Assembly (NCBI RefSeq): GCF_044324875.1 | Contig: NZ_CP172185.1 | From: Escherichia coli | Lineage (GTDB): Bacteria > Pseudomonadota > Gammaproteobacteria > Enterobacterales > Enterobacteriaceae | DNA: 64,000 bases | Strand: one strand, 5' to 3' | Shown: positions 138-52,475 of the stretch, piece after piece | Layout: each line of letters opens with the position of its first letter | How positions within the stretch are numbered: position 1 is the first letter of the stretch | Translations under genes and position numbers: made by a program | The notes under the pieces: model-generated | Databases searched by the model: none | The model's input: the letters and a program-made list of their open reading frames with translations, nothing else | What the model was told of the DNA's origin: nothing

Positions 138-1258
138 TCGTTGCTTTTTGTTTATATAAATATTTTCCCTTTGGCGGTTTGCAGCGCGATTTCATGCGTA
201 TTGCTCAGACAGTCGCCGCTCGAGGTCATCATGTTCGGGTTTATACCCAGTCGTGGGAAGGCGAATGCCCTGATGTATTTGAACTGATCAAAGTGCCGGT
301 TAAATCGCATACCAATCACGGGCGCAATGCGGAGTATTTTGCCTGGGTGCAAAAACATTTACGCGAACATCCCGTCGATAGAGTCGTTGGATTCAACAAA
401 ATGCCGGGGCTGGACGTTTATTATGCCGCTGATGTTTGTTATGCCGAGAAAGTAGCGCAGGAGAAAGGCTTTTTCTATCGCCTGACGTCACGTTATCGCC
501 ATTATGCCGCCTTTGAGCGAGCAACCTTTGAACAGGGTAAGCCGACACAGCTGCTGATGCTGACAGATAAGCAAATCGCCGATTTCCAGAAACATTATCA
601 GACTGAAGCGGAGCGTTTTCATATTCTGCCACCGGGGATTTACCCTGATCGTAAATATAGCCAGCAGCCAGCCAATAGCCGTGAAATCTTCCGTAAGAAG
701 AATGGAATAACCGAACAGCAATATTTATTGTTGCAGGTCGGTTCAGACTTCACGCGTAAAGGTGTCGATCGCTCCATTGAAGCACTTGCTTCGTTACCGG
801 ATTCGCTGCGCCACAACACATTGCTATATGTTGTTGGGCAGGATAAACCGCGAAAATTTGAGGCGCTGGCAGAAAAACGCGGCGTGCGCAGTAATGTTCA
901 CTTCTTCTCGGGGCGCAATGATGTCTCGGAATTAATGGCGGCGGCGGATTTATTACTGCATCCTGCCTACCAGGAAGCGGCGGGAATTGTGCTGCTGGAA
1001 GCGATTACTGCAGGATTACCGGTACTAACAACTGCCGTTTGTGGCTATGCGCATTATATTGTCGACGCCAATTGCGGCGAGGCTATTGCTGAGCCATTCC
1101 GCCAGGAAACATTGAATGAGATTTTACGCAAAGCGTTAACGCAATTTTCATTGCGCCAGGCCTGGGCGGAAAATGCGCGACATTATGCTGATACACAAGA
1201 TTTGTACAGTCTGCCAGAGAAAGCGGCGGATATCATAACGGGTGGTCTGGATGGTTGA
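134..1258 (+). CDS. waaG: LPS core glucosyltransferase I (GT4)
   Basis: 374-aa ORF; N-terminus and length match WaaG as I recall it. Confidence 0.9.
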
Positions 1259-2090: not shown

Positions 2091-3098
2091 ATGTCTCAAC
2101 TCAATGATAGTGACATCATCCTTTTTGAGTATAACTTTCATTATCAAAATATAAGATCTAAAAATACTCTTGATATCGCATTTGGTATTGACAGAAATTT
2201 TCTTTTTGGATGTGGTGTAGCCATCGCATCTATTCTATTAAACAATAGCGAAATCTCTTGTGAATTTCATGTTTTCACAGATTATATCAGTGATAAAGAC
2301 AAGTTATATTTTTCCGATTTAGCAAAACAATATAATTCAAGAATTAATATTTATGTTATCAATTGTGATAAGCTGAAGTCATTACCAAGCACGAAAAACT
2401 GGACTTACGCTACATATTTTCGATTTATAATTGCAGATTATTTCTATAATAAACATGAAAAAATACTATACCTTGATGCAGATATTGCTTGCAAGGGTAG
2501 TATTAAAGAACTCTTAGATTATCAATTCTCTACTAATGAAATTGCCGCAGTTGTAGCTGAAAGAGATGTTGAATGGTGGCAGAATCGAGCCTCGGTATTA
2601 ACTACACCACAATTAGCTTCTGGATATTTCAATGCTGGTTTTTTGCTGATAAATATTGATGAGTGGAATCTAAATAACATTTCGTCAAAAGCTATTGAAA
2701 TGTTGCGTGACCCAGATTGGGTAAGTAAAATCACCCACCTTGATCAAGATGTACTGAATGTATTATTGAATGGTAAAGTGAAGTTTATTTCGGGGAAATA
2801 TAATACCCGATATAGTATTAACTATGAATTAAAAGACAAAGTTGATAATCCAGTCAATGATGACACCGTGTTTATACACTATGTGGGACCTACAAAACCC
2901 TGGCATGAGTGGGCTGATTATCCGGTGTCACGTAGTTTTTTGATCGCCAAAGCAGCTTCTCCGTGGTGTAAAGAAGATTTACTTAAACCTGTGAATAGCA
3001 ATCAGTATCGGTATTGTGCAAAACATAAATTTAAACAAAAGCATTATATGGCAGGCATTTTTAATTATTTAAAGTATTATAAAGAAAAATGCTTCTAA
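2091..3098 (+). CDS. waaI: LPS outer-core alpha-1,3 glycosyltransferase, GT8 family (WaaI/WaaO type)
   Basis: 335-aa GT8-like protein directly after waaP; AT-rich; name assigned from R3-type gene order. Confidence 0.7.
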   Translation: MSQLNDSDIILFEYNFHYQNIRSKNTLDIAFGIDRNFLFGCGVAIASILLNNSEISCEFHVFTDYISDKDKLYFSDLAKQYNSRINIYVINCDKLKSLPSTKNWTYATYFRFIIADYFYNKHEKILYLDADIACKGSIKELLDYQFSTNEIAAVVAERDVEWWQNRASVLTTPQLASGYFNAGFLLINIDEWNLNNISSKAIEMLRDPDWVSKITHLDQDVLNVLLNGKVKFISGKYNTRYSINYELKDKVDNPVNDDTVFIHYVGPTKPWHEWADYPVSRSFLIAKAASPWCKEDLLKPVNSNQYRYCAKHKFKQKHYMAGIFNYLKYYKEKCF

Positions 3099-3123
3099 AG
3101 ATTTAAGGTTAAAATAATTCATT

Positions 3124-3831
3124 ATGATATATAATAAAACGATAAATGGGTTGAAAGTTTTCATAAAAGATAATGATCCCTTTTATGAGCAAGTGCTGAA
3201 TGACTTTTTAACTTGCAGGGTTAAAACATTAAAAGTTTTTCGTTCTATTGATGATACTAAAGTCATTCTTATTGACACTGCTCGTGGACCTCTTGTACTT
3301 AAAGTTTATGCGCCAAAGCATAAAATGATCGAACGTTTCTTAAAATCTTGCGTAAAAAAAGATTATTATGAAAATTTAATTTATCAAACCGATCGGGTAC
3401 GTGGTGAAGGCATTCAATCAATTAATGACTATTTTTTGCTTGCTGAACGTAAAACATTAAATTTCGCGCATTATTATATTATGCTCATTGAGTATATTGA
3501 AGGTGTCGGGTTAAATGAGTATTTGGAAATTTCTGAAGATCTGAAGGAACAATTATCAGAATCGATAAAAGAGTTGCATCAGCATGGAATGGTGTCTGGC
3601 GATCCTCATAAAGGAAATTTTATAGTATCCGAAAAAGGTTTAAGACTAATTGACCTTTCAGGTAAAAAAACAACCGCAGTTTTAAAAGCAAAAGATCGCA
3701 TTGATCTTGAACGGCACTATAATATAAAAAATGAATTGAAAGACTTTGGCTATACATATCTCATATTCAAAAAGAAAATTAAAAAAGCAATCAGGGATGT
3801 AAAAGTAAAACTAGGATTGAAGAGCAAATAA
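3124..3831 (+). CDS. waaY: LPS core heptose II kinase
   Basis: 235-aa kinase-like protein, size and position as WaaY. Confidence 0.7.
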   Translation: MIYNKTINGLKVFIKDNDPFYEQVLNDFLTCRVKTLKVFRSIDDTKVILIDTARGPLVLKVYAPKHKMIERFLKSCVKKDYYENLIYQTDRVRGEGIQSINDYFLLAERKTLNFAHYYIMLIEYIEGVGLNEYLEISEDLKEQLSESIKELHQHGMVSGDPHKGNFIVSEKGLRLIDLSGKKTTAVLKAKDRIDLERHYNIKNELKDFGYTYLIFKKKIKKAIRDVKVKLGLKSK

Positions 3832-3855: not shown

Positions 3856-4869
3856 TTGGATTTTAAACATCTTACTCAATTTAAAGATATAATTGAACTG
3901 GACAAGCGCCCCGTTAAACTTGATGAACGGGAAACGTTTAATGTCTCATGGGGTATTGATGAGAACTACCAGGTTGGGGCTGCGATTTCAATTGCTTCAA
4001 TTCTTGAAAATAATAAACAAAACAAATTTACCTTTCACATAATCGCTGATTACTTAGACAAAGAGTATATTGAATTATTATCACAATTAGCAACGAAGTA
4101 TCAAACAGTAATTAAATTATATCATATTGATTCTGAGCCATTGAAGGCGCTACCTCAATCAAATATCTGGCCAGTATCTATTTATTATCGTTTGCTTTCA
4201 TTTGATTATTTTTCTGCGCGATTGGATTCATTATTATATCTTGATGCTGATATCGTCTGTAAGGGTTCATTGAACGAGTTAATAGCATTAGAGTTTAAAG
4301 ATGAATATGGGGCTGTGGTAATTGATGTAGATGCTATGCAAAGTAAAAGCGCTGAGCGTTTATGTAATGAGGATTTTAACGGTAGCTATTTTAACTCTGG
4401 TGTAATGTATATTAATTTACGGGAATGGTTACAACAAAGACTAACGGAGAAATTTTTTGATCTATTATCAGATGAGTCAATTATCAAAAAATTAAAGTAT
4501 CCGGATCAAGATATTTTAAACTTAATGTTTTTACATCATGCTAAAATATTACCGAGAAAATATAATTGTATTTATACTATAAAGTCAGAATTTGAAGAAA
4601 AAAATAGTGAATATTACACCCAGTTTATTAATGATGAAACTGTCTTCATACATTATACTGGTGTAACTAAGCCATGGCATGATTGGGCGGACTACGCATC
4701 TGCAGATTATTTTCGTAATATTTATAATATATCTCCATGGAGAAATATACCTTATAAAAAAGCTGTTAAAAAACATGAGTACAAAGAAAAATATAAACAC
4801 TTGCTTTACCAGAAAAAATTTCTCAATGGTGTTTTTACAGCAATTAAATATAATGTTATGAAAGGTTAA
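3856..4869 (+). CDS. waaJ: LPS outer-core alpha-1,2 glycosyltransferase, GT8 family (WaaJ type)
   Basis: 337-aa GT8-like protein; frame opens after TGA at 3841-3843 and first start codon is TTG at 3856. Confidence 0.65.
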   Translation: MDFKHLTQFKDIIELDKRPVKLDERETFNVSWGIDENYQVGAAISIASILENNKQNKFTFHIIADYLDKEYIELLSQLATKYQTVIKLYHIDSEPLKALPQSNIWPVSIYYRLLSFDYFSARLDSLLYLDADIVCKGSLNELIALEFKDEYGAVVIDVDAMQSKSAERLCNEDFNGSYFNSGVMYINLREWLQQRLTEKFFDLLSDESIIKKLKYPDQDILNLMFLHHAKILPRKYNCIYTIKSEFEEKNSEYYTQFINDETVFIHYTGVTKPWHDWADYASADYFRNIYNISPWRNIPYKKAVKKHEYKEKYKHLLYQKKFLNGVFTAIKYNVMKG

Positions 4870-45731: not shown

Positions 45732-46883
45732 ATGGCAGCTTCAACCTTTTTTATTCCTGCCGTGAATGTTATTGGTGCTGATTCATTGAATGATGCAATG
45801 AATATGATGGCAGATTATGGATTTACCCGTACCTTAATTGTCACTGACAATATGTTAACGAAATTGGGTATGGCGGGTGATGTGCAAAAAGCACTGGAAG
45901 AACGCAATATTTTTAGCGTTATTTATGATGGCACCCAACCTAACCCCACCACGGAAAACGTCGCTGCAGGTTTGAAATTACTTAAAGAAAATAATTGCGA
46001 TAGCGTGATTTCCTTAGGCGGTGGTTCTCCACACGACTGCGCAAAAGGTATTGCGCTGGTGGCAGCCAATGGTGGCGATATTCGCGATTACGAAGGCGTT
46101 GACCGCTCTGCAAAACCGCAGCTGCCGATGATCGCCATCAATACCACGGCGGGTACGGCCTCTGAAATGACCCGTTTCTGCATCATCACTGACGAAGCGC
46201 GTCATATCAAAATGGCGATTGTTGATAAACATGTAACTCCGTTGCTTTCTGTCAATGACTCCTCGCTGATGATCGGTATGCCGAAGTCACTGACCGCCGC
46301 AACGGGTATGGATGCCTTAACACACGCTATCGAAGCGTATGTCTCTATCGCTGCAACGCCGATCACTGACGCTTGCGCACTGAAAGCGGTGACCATGATT
46401 GCCGAAAACCTGCCGTTAGCCGTTGAAGATGGCAGCAATGCTAAAGCGCGTGAAGCAATGGCTTATGCCCAGTTCCTCGCTGGTATGGCGTTCAACAACG
46501 CATCTCTTGGTTATGTTCATGCGATGGCGCACCAACTGGGCGGTTTCTACAACCTGCCACACGGTGTATGTAATGCTGTTCTGCTGCCACACGTTCAGGT
46601 GTTCAACAGCAAAGTCGCTGCTGCGCGTCTGCGTGACTGTGCTGCTGCCATGGGCGTTAACGTGACAGGCAAAAATGACGCGGAAGGCGCAGAAGCGTGC
46701 ATCAATGCCATCCGTGAACTGGCGAAGAAAGTGAATATCCCGGCAGGCCTGCGTGACCTGAACGTGAAAGAAGAGGATTTCGCGGTACTGGCCACCAATG
46801 CCCTGAAAGATGCGTGTGGGTTTACTAACCCGATTCAGGCAACTCACGAAGAGATTGTGGCAATTTATCGCGCTGCGATGTAA
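45732..46883 (+). CDS. yiaY: Iron-containing alcohol dehydrogenase
   Basis: 383-aa Fe-ADH family sequence matching YiaY. Confidence 0.9.
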
Positions 46884-46896
46884 TCATCATTCCCCC

Positions 46897-46925
46897 AATG
46901 GCTGGCTAATTGTCAGCCATTTTTT
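46897..46925 (+). terminator. Intrinsic terminator after yiaY
   Basis: Stem aatggctg/cagccatt followed by TTTTT. Confidence 0.75.
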
Positions 46926-47083
46926 AAACTATCTCAAAATTTGCGATTTTTGAGAGAGTTTTAGTTATCTCTGTAACCCTTGCCCGTAAATTCGTGATAG
47001 CCGTCGTAAAGCTGTTACCGACTGGCGAAGATTTCGCCAGCCACGTCTACCCTTGTTATACCTCACACCGCAAGGAGACGATC

Positions 47084-48622
47084 ATGACCAATAATCCCCC
47101 TTCAGCACAGATTAAGCCCGGCGAGTATGGTTTCCCCCTCAAGTTAAAAACCCGCTATGACAACTTTATTGGCGGCGAATGGGTAGCCCCTGCCGATGGT
47201 GAGTATTACCAGAACCTGACGCCGGTGACCGGGCAGCTGCTGTGCGAAGTGGCGTCTTCGGGCAAACGAGACATCGATCTGGCGCTGGATGCTGCGCACA
47301 AAGTGAAAGATAAATGGGCGCACACCTCGGTGCAGGATCGTGCGGCGATTCTGTTTAAGATTGCCGATCGAATGGAACAAAACCTCGAGCTGTTAGCGAC
47401 AGCTGAAACCTGGGATAACGGCAAACCCATTCGCGAAACCAGTGCTGCTGATGTACCGCTGGCGATTGACCATTTCCGCTATTTCGCCTCGTGTATTCGG
47501 GCGCAGGAAGGTGGGATCAGTGAAGTTGATAGCGAAACCGTGGCCTATCATTTCCATGAACCGTTAGGCGTGGTGGGGCAGATTATCCCGTGGAACTTCC
47601 CGCTGCTGATGGCGAGCTGGAAAATGGCCCCTGCGCTGGCGGCGGGCAACTGCGTGGTGCTGAAACCCGCACGGCTTACCCCGCTTTCTGTACTGCTGCT
47701 AATGGAAATCGTCGGTGATTTACTGCCGCCGGGCGTGGTGAACGTGGTCAACGGTGCAGGTGGGGAAATTGGCGAATATCTGGCGACCTCGAAACGCATC
47801 GCCAAAGTGGCGTTTACCGGCTCAACGGAAGTGGGTCAACAAATTATGCAATACGCCACGCAAAACATTATTCCGGTGACGCTGGAGCTGGGCGGCAAAT
47901 CGCCAAATATCTTCTTTGCTGACGTGATGGATGAAGAAGATGCCTTTTTTGATAAAGCGCTGGAAGGCTTTGCACTGTTTGCCTTTAACCAGGGCGAAGT
48001 TTGCACCTGTCCAAGCCGTGCTTTAGTGCAGGAGTCTATCTACGAACGCTTCATGGAACGCGCCATCCGCCGTGTTGAAAGTATTCGTAGCGGTAACCCG
48101 CTCGACAGCGTGACGCAAATGGGCGCGCAGGTTTCTCACGGGCAACTGGAAACCATCCTCAACTACATTGATATTGGTAAAAAAGAGGGCGCAGACGTGC
48201 TCACCGGCGGGCGGCGCAAGCTGCTGGAAGGAGAACTGAAAGACGGCTACTACCTCGAACCGACGATTCTGTTTGGTCAGAATAATATGCGCGTGTTCCA
48301 GGAAGAAATTTTTGGTCCGGTGCTGGCGGTGACCACCTTCAAAACGATGGAAGAAGCGCTGGAGCTGGCGAACGACACACAATATGGCCTGGGCGCGGGT
48401 GTCTGGAGCCGCAACGGTAATCTGGCCTATAAGATGGGGCGCGGCATTCAGGCTGGGCGCGTGTGGACCAACTGTTATCACGCTTACCCGGCACATGCGG
48501 CGTTTGGCGGCTACAAACAGTCGGGCATCGGACGCGAAACCCATAAGATGATGCTTGAGCATTACCAGCAAACCAAGTGCCTGCTGGTGAGCTATTCGGA
48601 TAAACCGTTGGGGCTGTTCTGA
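47084..48622 (+). CDS. aldB: Aldehyde dehydrogenase B
   Basis: ORF track 5'-overextended; start [17 protein letters not shown] gives 512 aa. Confidence 0.93.
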
Positions 48623-48653
48623 TATAAGAAGCTGGTCGCATTGGGTATTCATT

Positions 48654-48737
48654 GCCTGATGCGACGCTTACGCGTTTTATCATGCCTACGGGGACCTGAC
48701 CGTAGGCCGGATAAGGCGTACACGCCGCATCCGGCAT
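48654..48737. repeat. REP/BIME element downstream of aldB
   Basis: gcctgatgcgacgcttacgcg... and gtaggccggataaggcgtacacgccgcatccggcat REP-like units. Confidence 0.8.
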
Positions 48738-48848
48738 AAACAAAGCGCACGTTGTTACAATTTACGTTTTAAACCTACGTGCGCAATAACCCAATAACCC
48801 AGACTACGCCAACAGAAGTGCGTTTCTGGGGCGTGTTTTGCCAGGAGT

Positions 48849-49061
48849 TTAATCTCGCGTTTCGATGGTGAGCGGGCGAACCAGACCATAAATCACCATT
48901 GGCGTTCCGAGGCCAATCAGCAATAAACGGTAGATAATTGAAGGTTTAATACGCTTAATCTGTACTGTGGATGTTTTACTGGAGTTATTCATTAGTTTGG
49001 CCAATAGTTCCATTATTTCAATATGATAAGCCTCGCACTGTTGAAAAGCCAGGCTGCACAT
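48849..49061 (-). CDS. Hypothetical small membrane protein (54-70 aa)
   Basis: ORF with C-terminal hydrophobic segment IIYRLLLIGLGTPMVIYGLV between aldB and yiaW; no family recognised. Confidence 0.25.
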   Translation of the reverse strand: MCSLAFQQCEAYHIEIMELLAKLMNNSSKTSTVQIKRIKPSIIYRLLLIGLGTPMVIYGLVRPLTIETRD

Positions 49062-49174
49062 TTCAGAAAGTATATAAAAAACAATATGTCGTTATATAAA
49101 TAAGGAAATTGCACCGCATTATGGTATTTCATAATATGCGTTAATTGTTCTTTTCTATATTCTCTGAGGGAAAT

Positions 49175-49498
49175 ATGTTCCTGGATTATTTTGCATTGGG
49201 AGTGCTTATTTTTGTATTTCTGGTGATATTCTATGGGATTATTATTTTACATGATGTTCCCTACCTGATTGCTAAAAAACGTAATCATCCACATGCCGAC
49301 GCCATTCATGTTGCTGGTTGGGTAAGTCTTTTTACGTTACATGTTATCTGGCCATTTTTGTGGATTTGGGCCACGCTTTACCGCCCGGAGCGGGGATGGG
49401 GAATGCAAAACCATGACTCCTCCGTTGTGCAACTACAACAGCGTATTGCCGGGCTGGAGAAACAGCTCGCCGACATCAAATCCTCTTCTGCCGAGTAA
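49175..49498 (+). CDS. yiaW: DUF3302-family small inner-membrane protein
   Basis: 107 aa from [11 protein letters not shown]; paralogue of the yibI product. Confidence 0.85.
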
Positions 49499-49503
49499 TA
49501 CTT

Positions 49504-50640
49504 ATGGATTTACTGATTATTTTAACCTATGTGGCTTTCGCATGGGCAATGTTTAAGATCTTCAAAATTCCTGTAAATAAATGGACCATTCCCACAGCGG
49601 CCCTGGGTGGCATATTTATTGTCAGCGGTTTAATTCTGTTAATGAACTATAACCATCCGTATACCTTTAAAGCGCAAAAAGCGGTTATTTCTATTCCTGT
49701 TGTCCCACAGGTGACAGGCGTGGTGATCGAAGTGACGGACAAGAAAAATACGCTGATTAAAAAAGGTGAGGTGCTATTTCGACTGGACCCGACGCGTTAT
49801 CAGGCGCGGGTGGATCGGCTGATGGCGGATATCGTTACCGCAGAACATAAACAGCGGGCGTTGGGCGCAGAGTTAGATGAGATGGCGGCGAATACTCAGC
49901 AGGCAAAGGCCACGCGGGATAAATTCGCTAAAGAGTATCAGCGTTACGCACGCGGCAGTCAGGCGAAAGTAAACCCGTTTTCAGAACGTGATATCGATGT
50001 GGCGCGGCAAAATTATCTGGCACAGGAAGCCTCCGTAAAATCAGCGGCGGCGGAACAAAAACAGATCCTGAGCCAGCTGGATAGCCTGGTGTTGGGTGAA
50101 CATTCTCAAATCGCCAGCCTGAAAGCACAGCTCGCGGAAGCAAAATATAACCTTGAGCAGACGATAGTGCGTGCGCCGAGCGATGGTTATGTGACCCAGG
50201 TACTGATTCGTCCGGGTACCTATGCCGCGTCGCTGCCGCTACGTCCGGTGATGGTGTTTATACCCGATCAGAAACGACAAATCGTGGCGCAGTTCCGTCA
50301 GAACTCCTTGCTGCGACTGGCTCCTGGCGACGATGCGGAAGTGGTGTTTAATGCTCTGCCAGGTAAGGTATTCAGCGGTAAGCTGGCAGCCATTAGTCCA
50401 GCCGTTCCCGGCGGAGCTTATCAGTCGACCGGCACCTTACAGACGTTAAACACAGCGCCGGGTTCAGATGGCGTTATCGCGACCATTGAACTGGATGAGC
50501 ATACTGATTTGAGCGCATTACCAGACGGTATTTACGCCCAGGTGGCGGTCTACTCTGATCATTTCAGCCATGTCTCGGTGATGCGCAAAGTACTGTTACG
50601 CATGACCAGCTGGGTGCATTACCTTTATCTCGATCATTAA
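49504..50640 (+). CDS. yiaV: HlyD-family membrane-fusion-like protein
   Basis: 378 aa; paralogue of the yibH product, with an almost identical C-terminal tail. Confidence 0.85.
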
Positions 50641-51611
50641 TCTTCGCTTTCCGCCGTTTGTTCAGGCCGCAGTTGCTGCGACTGAGCAAGCTGGTGGCGA
50701 ATTTCACGCAGCATTTCATCCAGCACATACTGGACCCGCCAGGGCTGGTATTCCCGTTTACGGAAGATAGCCACCAGATCCAGCCACCATTCATACGGGT
50801 GCTGAAAGCAGGGCACCAGCGTGCCGTCTTGCAGGTCGCTCTGCACACTTTTGTCTGGCGCAAACACAATCCCCAGGTGATTTCGTGCCAGCTCCAGCGC
50901 AGATTGCGTGTTGTCGCAAACGTAATTTCCCTTCACGCGATAATCCCGCACCTCTTTACTCCCGGCGACGTTGAAGCGCCAGATATTCGCGTCGTCGATC
51001 ATCATCGAGTCGATCAAAATACAGGAGTGATGTTCGAGTTCGTCAGGACGGCTAATGGGATGTTTCTCAAGATAGCGCTGGCTGGCATAAGCGGTTACGG
51101 CATATTGGGTAATAAAACTGGCAACCAGCGATTCATCTTTTGGTTGGGCGTAGCTGATTAAAACATCACAATCATCGGGAAATTCGACGCCTTCATAAAA
51201 GGCATTACGCTCAAGATTGCAGGTTTTTAGCGATAAGGTGATATCACCGATATCTTTAATTTTATCGATTACATGTTTGGATAAATAGGTAATTATGCCG
51301 GTTGGTGCATAGATAGTGACCCGACCACGTTTCTCATGCTTATAATCTGCAATAAAATTATTAAGCTGCTCGTTTCTGTCCAGCATGTCGTTGATGTACG
51401 GTAACAGCACGGTGCCAAAAGGTGTGAGCATCAGCTGTCGGGTGGTTCGGTCAAAGACTTTTAAACCCACTTTTGATTCAAAATCAGCAAGATATTTGCT
51501 GACGTTGGCCTGTGCGATGCCAAGTACAGTCGCGGCATGGCTGATATTTTCACTGGCAGCGATTACCGAGATAATTTTTAACTCCCGGTACTTAAGTTGT
51601 AATTTTGTCAT
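50637..51611 (-). CDS. yiaU: LysR-family transcriptional regulator
   Basis: 324 aa with N-terminal HTH and LysR substrate-binding domain; convergent with yiaV, stops overlap. Confidence 0.88.
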
Positions 51612-51734
51612 CGCAACAGCCCAATTATATATAATTTTATATATTACTATATAAATATGAATCTTGCACCGGATAAATTGTAAGCATTACTATGCCGACT
51701 CTTTTTTATCTTATTTTAAAATGGAATACCGGAC

Positions 51735-52475
51735 ATGTTAATTAACCGCAATATTGTGGCGTTATTTGCGTTGCCTTTTATGGCAAGCGCAACTGCTTCT
51801 GAATTATCCATTGGTGCTGGTGCGGCTTATAATGAATCGCCTTATCGCGGTTATAATGAAAATACAAAGGCAATTCCGCTGATTAGTTATGAAGGTGATA
51901 CTTTTTATGTTCGTCAGACCACGTTAGGTTTTATTCTGTCGCAAAGTGAAAAAAATGAACTTAGCCTGACCGCATCCTGGATGCCGCTGGAATTTGACCC
52001 TGCCGATAATGACGATTATGCCATGCAACAGCTTGATAAGCGTGATAGTACGGCTATGGCGGGGGTTGCCTGGTATCACCACGAGCGTTGGGGAACCGTG
52101 AAAGCCTCTGCGGCTGCGGACGTTCTGGATAACAGCAACGGCTGGGTGGGGGAGCTATCGGTATTCCACAAAATGCAGATAGGTCGCCTGTCGCTGACAC
52201 CTGCGCTGGGCGTTCTCTATTATGACGAGAATTTCAGTGACTATTACTATGGCATTTCAGAGAGTGAGTCCCGTCGTAGCGGTCTGGCAAGTTATTCCGC
52301 GCAGGATGCCTGGGTGCCCTATGTCAGCCTGACGGCAAAATACCCGATAGGAGAGCACGTCGTATTGATGGCGAGCGCAGGATACAGCGAGCTGCCGGAA
52401 GAGATTACCGACAGCCCGATGGTTGATCGTAATGAGAGTTTTACCTTTGTCACTGGCGTGAGCTGGCGTTTTTAA
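51735..52475 (+). CDS. yiaT: MipA/OmpV-family outer-membrane protein
   Basis: 246 aa with signal peptide and C-terminal aromatic residue (ends SWRF). Confidence 0.85.
   Translation: MLINRNIVALFALPFMASATASELSIGAGAAYNESPYRGYNENTKAIPLISYEGDTFYVRQTTLGFILSQSEKNELSLTASWMPLEFDPADNDDYAMQQLDKRDSTAMAGVAWYHHERWGTVKASAAADVLDNSNGWVGELSVFHKMQIGRLSLTPALGVLYYDENFSDYYYGISESESRRSGLASYSAQDAWVPYVSLTAKYPIGEHVVLMASAGYSELPEEITDSPMVDRNESFTFVTGVSWRF

Follow-up and report, generated by a model that had tools for sequence, protein, structure and literature searches.

Is a short, hydrophobic reading frame lying between two bacterial genes a small membrane protein, a chance opening in non-coding DNA, or something else? 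The question is raised by the spacer between aldB and yiaW in a 64,000-nucleotide stretch of Escherichia coli DNA (hereafter the window, to which all positions refer unless a locus is named). Here a first-pass annotation, made from the letters alone, had described an unannotated minus-strand ORF of 54-70 aa with a hydrophobic C-terminal stretch, and had offered two explanations: either a genuine small membrane protein or an ORF present by chance. As put, neither of them holds. The frame is genuine as the in-frame head and tail of a conserved 104-aa gene, and we consider it likely that it represents a decaying relic of that gene, which encoded a real membrane protein.

A small reading frame with three possible starts

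The frame occupies 48849..49061 on the minus strand and comprises 70 codons from its first ATG (MCSLAF...TIETRD; MCSLAFQQCEAYHIEIMELLAKLMNNSSKTSTVQIKRIKPSIIYRLLLIGLGTPMVIYGLVRPLTIETRD). Internal ATG codons at 49013 (MELLAKLM) and 48992 (MNNSS), on the same strand, yield 54 and 47 aa, respectively; the strand and the lengths of 54 and 70 aa given previously are confirmed. The 601 nt around it are 100% identical to E. coli strain CFSAN061763. As had been stated, no longer gene overlaps the frame. The gene for aldehyde dehydrogenase B, aldB (47084..48622, plus strand), converges on it, and yiaW, encoding a DUF3302 protein (49175..49498, plus strand), is its divergent neighbour. The REP/BIME elements 3' of aldB (48623..48770) appear as three overlapping sub-threshold matches to the REP-derived naRNA4 (48612-48785), and an Rfam scan of 46000-52000 gave only such sub-threshold REP-like matches; the REP part of the query matches several times per E. 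coli genome. The position between the aldB REP elements and yiaW was correctly described, although the promoter of yiaW, as placed by homology below, does not lie clear of the frame.

The length of the ORF is not beyond chance. In a simulation of 5000 composition-matched spacers of 552 nt (first-order Markov), an ATG-initiated ORF of at least 70 codons was present in 18% and one of at least 47 codons in 60%; it is homology, not length, that sets the small ORF above chance. The reported hydrophobic stretch exists, although it is marginal: the Kyte-Doolittle mean over 19 residues peaks at 1.71 (residues 19-37 in the 47-aa form), which barely exceeds the usual cut-off of 1.6, and the segment contains one Arg and one Pro. 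Judged by anti-SD duplex energy, there is no Shine-Dalgarno sequence at any of the three starts (+0.4, -2.0 and -3.3 kcal/mol, compared with -6.1 kcal/mol for yiaW and -8.5 kcal/mol for aldB), including the MELLAKLM start, before which the first-pass annotation had suggested that one be sought. Scanning for promoters and terminators, we found no promoter on the minus strand that could serve the small ORF.

An in-frame deletion within a 104-residue gene

With each species represented by one genome, we collected yiaW loci and aligned their spacers towards aldB (alignment A1). Within the small ORF, 171 extra nt are present in Escherichia whittamii and Escherichia sp. E1V33 (columns 322-492 of the alignment). 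The intact frame in these two genomes is 127 codons long, or 104 aa from the MNN methionine (2504..2887 in the E. whittamii locus L007 and 777..1160 in the E1V33 locus L006). The E. coli frame is this intact frame minus exactly 171 nt, a multiple of three, and is thus an in-frame derivative of it. A copy of one 8-mer (GCCTGGTT read on the coding strand, AACCAGGC on the plus strand) flanks the 171-nt segment at either end, and the segment comprises codons 39-95 (57 codons, CGILGMF...LWLYSLV; CGILGMFGYDQVRWNDTVIHGLLALPAGLLAGLSVSVFLTVLIGTIACFGLWLYSLV). The surviving copy of this direct repeat is found at 48879..48886 (minus strand), where it reads GTCTGGTT in the window and GCCTGGTT in K-12, and the deletion junction falls between positions 48878 and 48879. 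The 47-codon frame (48849..48992, minus strand; MNNSSKTSTVQIKRIKPSIIYRLLLIGLGTPMVIYGLV joined to RPLTIETRD) joins the opening 38 codons of the 104-aa gene to its closing 9: an N-terminal tail and most of transmembrane helix 1 are encoded by codons 1-38, and the original C-terminus by codons 39-47.

The reading we favour is that the Escherichia ancestor carried a gene for a membrane protein of ~104 aa between aldB and yiaW, convergent with the former and divergent from the latter. Within E. coli, the two GCCTGGTT copies, which lie 171 nt from each other, then bounded an in-frame deletion of codons 39-95, apparently through replication slippage or microhomology-mediated recombination. This fused the opening 38 codons, with the start codon, to the last 9 and kept the old promoter region.

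Codon 39 (48876-48878) is CGC in the window, in K-12 and in loci L099 and L100, and TGC in O157, L097 and L098; in the intact gene, TGC follows the first copy of the repeat and CGC the second. Either a single deletion plus a C/T change, or a deletion that took place twice with different cross-over points, could produce this split. A separate deletion in a third species-level lineage, Escherichia sp. MOD1-EC7003, takes the 5' half of the 104-aa gene together with its upstream region.

The parent gene belongs to a conserved family

An exhaustive phmmer search of 1.84 billion representatives yielded 162 proteins at E<=1e-3, 29 of them at E<=1e-10, and typical members of the family have 100-125 aa. 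The alignments start at residues 1-5 of the homologues and at residues 24-35 of the 127-aa query. Since the homologues begin at the MNN methionine, only 48849..48992, the 47-aa frame, is ancestral coding sequence. The closest relatives are found in Citrobacter amalonaticus/farmeri (104 aa, 56% identity) and in Franconibacter (103 aa, 54%), and all of these proteins are named in the databases as hypothetical or inner membrane proteins. Copies of the parent gene lie at 2504..2818 (L007), 2948..3262 (L086), 4001..4315 (L103) and 4001..4312 (L105).

The order in C. amalonaticus is yiaT-yiaU-yiaV-yiaW, then the 104-aa gene divergent from yiaW and convergent with aldB-yiaY, while in Franconibacter the 103-aa gene is again convergent with aldB; the parent gene thereby keeps its tail-to-tail arrangement with aldB in three genera, Escherichia, Citrobacter (C. 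amalonaticus) and Franconibacter. The 47-aa frame occupies the orthologous position, convergent with aldB, and shares locus, strand and neighbours with the hypothetical 104-aa inner-membrane protein (WP_001064341.1 and WP_001064340.1 in E. coli, the P0193 cluster in C. amalonaticus/farmeri, WP_024553640.1 in Franconibacter). Over its first 38 and last 9 residues, it shares 87-100% identity with the intact Escherichia alleles and ~60% with the Citrobacter orthologue. In the Citrobacter freundii group and in other genera, there is no such gene beside yiaW, and conservation is limited to the ~45-110 nt closest to it. Conservation of the frame in relatives, the lack of which was to have counted against the ORF, is hence found only as part of a longer gene, and next to yiaW it stops short of the C. 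freundii group and other genera.

The AlphaFold model of the parent protein (mean pLDDT 85, built on 64 homologues) places a strand at residues 8-10, a helix at 17-44, a short hairpin at 51-56, a helix at 59-95 and a strand at 100-102; the protein would accordingly have a strand at each terminus and, between them, a transmembrane helix, a conserved hairpin loop and a long second helix. Six positions are invariant or nearly so in the family, G27, G46, G59, G88, L89 and W90, and of these G27 alone stays after the deletion. The N-terminal basic motif with the first hydrophobic helix (K/R-x-h-K-x-x-S/T-h-h-K/R-L-h-h-h-G) is present at residues 12-29 of the 47-aa frame, and tblastn searches with P0052 and P0054 matched window-type alleles over residues 1-38/43. 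The FG-x-D-x-V-x-WN loop, the invariant G59 and G88 and the nearly invariant G46, L89 and W90 are absent from the 47-aa frame, all lying in the deleted codons. Of the C-terminal family motif YS-x-x-RPL-x-h-x-h, RPLTIETRD is left and the preceding GLWLYS is deleted. Compared with the 104-aa protein, therefore, the 47-aa frame lacks residues 39-95, with the loop, G59, G88 and the GLW motif, has ~45% of the length, and retains one helix of a predicted multi-helix body. If translated, it would give a single-pass peptide from which the conserved family core is missing.

Scans of the 70-aa, 47-aa and 104/127-aa forms and of the homologues against Pfam, NCBIfam, PHROGs and PADLOC gave nothing above threshold. 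A profile search of PDB sequences returned 0 matches, and Foldseek with the AlphaFold model returned nothing at E<=0.001. One Franconibacter homologue carries the UniRef label DUF3566 (Pfam PF12089); we rejected this assignment, as the best match to PF12089, in one homologue, scores 11.8 bits (E=0.33), below the gathering score of 22.2 bits, and DUF3566 is not among the recurrent families in 64 members. The neighbourhoods of six more distant family members are all different, with no conserved partner. These contexts being unrelated, no function can be inferred from them. Most of the distant members come from short metagenomic contigs.

The upstream codons and the yiaW promoter region

The 70- and 54-aa versions owe their extra length to 23 upstream codons (48993..49061, minus strand), which probably represent the old 5' UTR and promoter rather than coding sequence. 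The homologues do not cover them. In-frame stops occur there in the O157, L095, L096 and L100 alleles and the first ATG is lost in several others, with O157, L095, L096, L099 and L100 being interrupted or ATG-less. The pN/pS of these codons is 0.6-0.8, even among genomes with the intact gene, and the nucleotide diversity of 48993-49061 (0.116) is the maximum of the spacer and exceeds each neighbouring segment by a factor of 2.5-5. Reading through this old 5' region is what produces the 70- and 54-aa forms, which are thus artefacts, presumably accidental extensions into its untranslated leader and promoter. Several of the differences at 48993-49061 are clustered and span multiple bases, which suggests recombination tracts or mutation clusters.

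A TATCAT/TATTAT block ~30 nt before the MNN ATG is common to Escherichia and C. amalonaticus, and it is a plausible -10 element of the old gene. On the opposite strand, the yiaWV core promoter can be placed at 49050..49078 (plus strand; -35 CAGGCT at 49050-49055, -10 TATAAA at 49073-49078) by homology to the K-12 promoter CAGACA-17-TATAAA in a genomic SELEX table (PMC3946193), which also marks the aldB-yiaW spacer as H-NS bound. Conservation of this promoter block extends to Citrobacter. The 70-aa ORF has its first ATG (49059-49061) inside the spacer of this core promoter. A sigma-70-like site, TGGCCA-18-TATGAT, is found at 48998-49027 (plus strand) within the upstream extension of the ORF, one such site where 1.7 are expected; it may be an additional promoter of yiaW or have arisen by chance.

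The AT-rich DNA that separates the ORF from yiaW appears to be a hot spot for IS1. The element is present there in three unrelated natural isolates (L092 820-1517, L093 1979-2676 and L094 1787-2484, corresponding to window positions ~49000-49170), two of which also have adjacent deletions, of yiaW and beyond in one and of aldB-yiaY in the other. A laboratory-evolved strain with IS1 inside yiaW has been reported (PMC5495878). Macrophage-adaptation papers that name yiaW were set aside, their IS1 insertion being inside yiaW and not in the small ORF. A second DUF3302 gene, 73-75% identical to yiaW, is found at another locus in Escherichia (L061, L064, L063, L068 and L060), and E. albertii has only this yiaW paralogue among the retrieved loci.

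Intact and deleted haplotypes within E. coli

We counted haplotypes in 5426 complete E. coli genomes. The arrangement aldB-hicA-hicB-intact 104-aa gene-yiaW is found in 16 genomes (for example EC42405, CDS WP_001064341.1), and 12 have the intact 104-aa gene with hicAB gone (for example EC26, WP_001064340.1), giving 28 genomes out of 5426 with an intact allele. Both hicAB and the 171 nt are lost in about 3780 genomes, including the window and K-12, and about 500 genomes (for example UID2309220031) have aldB-hicAB followed by unrelated genes, with neither the ORF nor yiaW. The deleted allele therefore accounts for about 99% of the E. coli that possess the locus. These haplotypes show that the loss of hicAB and the internal deletion were separate events. 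The independent losses of the gene, by the deletion in MOD1-EC7003 and in the ~500 E. coli without ORF and yiaW, argue for its dispensability.

What is left of hicAB in the window is a 3'-terminal remnant of hicB (..YVRNNPDYANRS..) at 48773..48852 (plus strand), which comprises its last ~25 codons and whose old stop overlaps the stop of the small ORF. The remnant is frame-shifted in the window strain by an 8-bp tandem duplication, CAATAACC CAATAACC, at 48784-48799, seen relative to K-12, O157 and other Escherichia. Intact hicB, alongside intact hicA, is present in E1V33 (370..780 of L006; Pfam HicB_lk_antitox, PF15919, E=9e-37) and in E. coli EC42405, and the intact neighbour carries the HicB antitoxin domain in both. 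We considered, and rejected, a tie between the small ORF and hicAB: Citrobacter, Franconibacter and EC26-type E. coli have the gene without hicAB.

Annotation and literature status

That the frame is unannotated is true of the K-12 MG1655 record, which has no feature between yiaW and aldB and no pseudogene entry. It is not true of RefSeq, where the NCBI pipeline records the 47-aa form as hypothetical protein WP_001066082.1 in the strain identical to the window, and where most E. coli genomes also carry it as a hypothetical protein. Because the frame was left uninterrupted from start to stop by an in-frame deletion, automatic pipelines call a CDS. A text search of the literature covered gave no match to the peptide string. 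In the parts covered, the supplement of the Stringer et al. preprint lists nothing at 3.7545-3.7547 Mb, an acid-stress Ribo-seq supplement has no entry for the small ORF, and an O157 Sakai small-gene supplement contains no match to it.

Selection on the remnant

We compared eight distinct deleted haplotypes with the intact alleles. The Nei-Gojobori pN/pS is 0.12 for the intact 104-codon gene versus 0.59 for the 47-codon remnant. Where random changes would be 75% nonsynonymous under neutrality, the intact alleles show 8 nonsynonymous and 21 synonymous events (binomial p=1.4e-7) and are under purifying selection. The deleted alleles show 11 nonsynonymous and 7 synonymous events (p=0.18); they are not distinguishable from neutral, although with 18 events moderate constraint is compatible with the data. 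The two classes differ (Fisher p=0.034). The synonymous-substitution analysis proposed in the first-pass annotation thus gives a near-neutral result for the deleted alleles, unlike the intact gene, and the remnant appears to be no longer under detectable purifying selection. Nucleotide diversity is 0.045 in the small ORF, compared with 0.024 in the flanking hicB remnant and 0.038 in the yiaW-proximal spacer.

The 47-codon frame is open in 8/8 haplotypes. The probability that 18 random substitutions cause no stop or loss of the start is 0.33, however, so the open frame in all eight is weak evidence, and disrupted variants exist in public data (frameshifted or truncated P0026, P0041, P0043 and P0045). 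The transmembrane-helix part (IKRIKPSIIYRLLLIGLG) is nearly unchanged among the deleted alleles; the nonsynonymous changes are mostly in the N-terminal tail, which is variable among family members too.

Alternative readings of the locus

The 47-aa product might instead be an expressed, functional single-pass membrane microprotein, born by truncation and kept by selection, for example as a modulator of another membrane protein, a role that many small membrane proteins of E. coli play. The frame that is intact in every sampled haplotype, the retained start codon and upstream region, the nearly invariant hydrophobic helix segment and a pN/pS below 1 are all consistent with this, as is the CDS call by the NCBI pipeline, and the prevalence of the in-frame deletion among E. 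coli with the locus could reflect selection. Several observations point the other way. The ratio of nonsynonymous to synonymous changes cannot be told apart from neutral and shows significantly looser constraint than in the intact gene, the ORF is at least as diverse as its flanks, no Shine-Dalgarno sequence precedes the frame, the region is H-NS bound, the marginal hydrophobic segment holds an Arg and a Pro, and neither the peptide nor its coordinates match the literature or the supplementary tables in the parts covered. On balance we regard a functional microprotein as unlikely, and the peptide is probably without function.

The validated small inner-membrane proteins of E. coli, a class known from tagging and ribosome profiling, in the portions covered of two preprints (bioRxiv 10.1101/511675 and 10.1101/2021.07.02.450978), resemble the 47-aa frame in size, single hydrophobic helix and intergenic place, from which it differs in having no Shine-Dalgarno sequence, no sign of purifying selection and an origin by decay of a larger gene. 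The gene remnants and pseudogenes of K-12 (e.g. ysaD, b4649, about 3.5 kb away) are likewise fragments of longer genes under relaxed constraint; unlike them, the 47-aa frame arose by an in-frame internal deletion, is uninterrupted and is not recorded as a pseudogene in K-12. As a short hydrophobic peptide near a toxin-antitoxin remnant (hicB), the frame is also reminiscent of type I toxins of the Hok, Ldr, Ibs and TisB class. We rejected this reading: the parent is a stand-alone 104-aa gene in unrelated contexts, there is no antisense RNA family and no toxin-family similarity, with Rfam giving REP-like matches only and Pfam, NCBIfam and PADLOC no match. The neighbouring hicAB belongs to type II, not type I, and has no relation to the small ORF.

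It is doubtful that the deletion created a new 47-aa single-pass membrane microprotein, expressed from the old promoter, whose near-fixation (about 3780 genomes with the deletion versus 28 intact) was driven by selection, whether for the microprotein or for loss of the full-length protein. If true, this would be a natural, datable case in which a larger gene, as it decayed, gave birth to a small protein, and the intact ancestor, which still segregates in E. coli, could be compared with it directly.

The sequence could also matter as DNA, through upstream regulation of yiaWV, by H-NS nucleation, a site for YiaU or another regulator, or a second promoter. The H-NS-bound spacer that carries the yiaWV promoter (PMC3946193), the sigma-70-like plus-strand site at 48998-49027 and the repeated IS1 insertions in the spacer would fit this idea. 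We nevertheless consider it very improbable as an account of the ORF: only roughly 110 nt nearest yiaW are conserved into Citrobacter, MOD1-EC7003 has lost the body of the ORF and kept yiaW, and diversity in the ORF is as high as, or above, that of the neutral flanks. Finally, the frame could be an accidental opening in AT-rich, non-coding DNA that never had a coding role, with which the simulated lengths (at least 70 codons, P=0.18; at least 47, P=0.60) and the absence of Pfam and NCBIfam matches agree. The alignment with intact orthologues refutes this idea, to which we give practically no credence: the frame is in register and collinear with a gene of 104 aa for which there are 162 relatives, synteny in three genera and strong purifying selection.

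Implications

The decaying relic of a 104-aa membrane-protein gene, which is the reading we favour, has consequences for how the locus is annotated. Thousands of RefSeq E. coli genomes show a 47-aa hypothetical protein and the K-12 reference shows nothing; a consistent label would be the remnant of an internally deleted gene. We stress that a small ORF that is open, hydrophobic and species-wide can be a decay product, and small-protein screens should therefore check for longer orthologues. The parent belongs to a conserved, widespread family of membrane proteins of ~100 aa, with a confident predicted structure and without Pfam, NCBIfam or PDB representation. In E. coli, the locus of this gene keeps its step-by-step decay within one species, from hicAB with the intact gene, through the loss of hicAB and the internal deletion, to the loss of the whole region.
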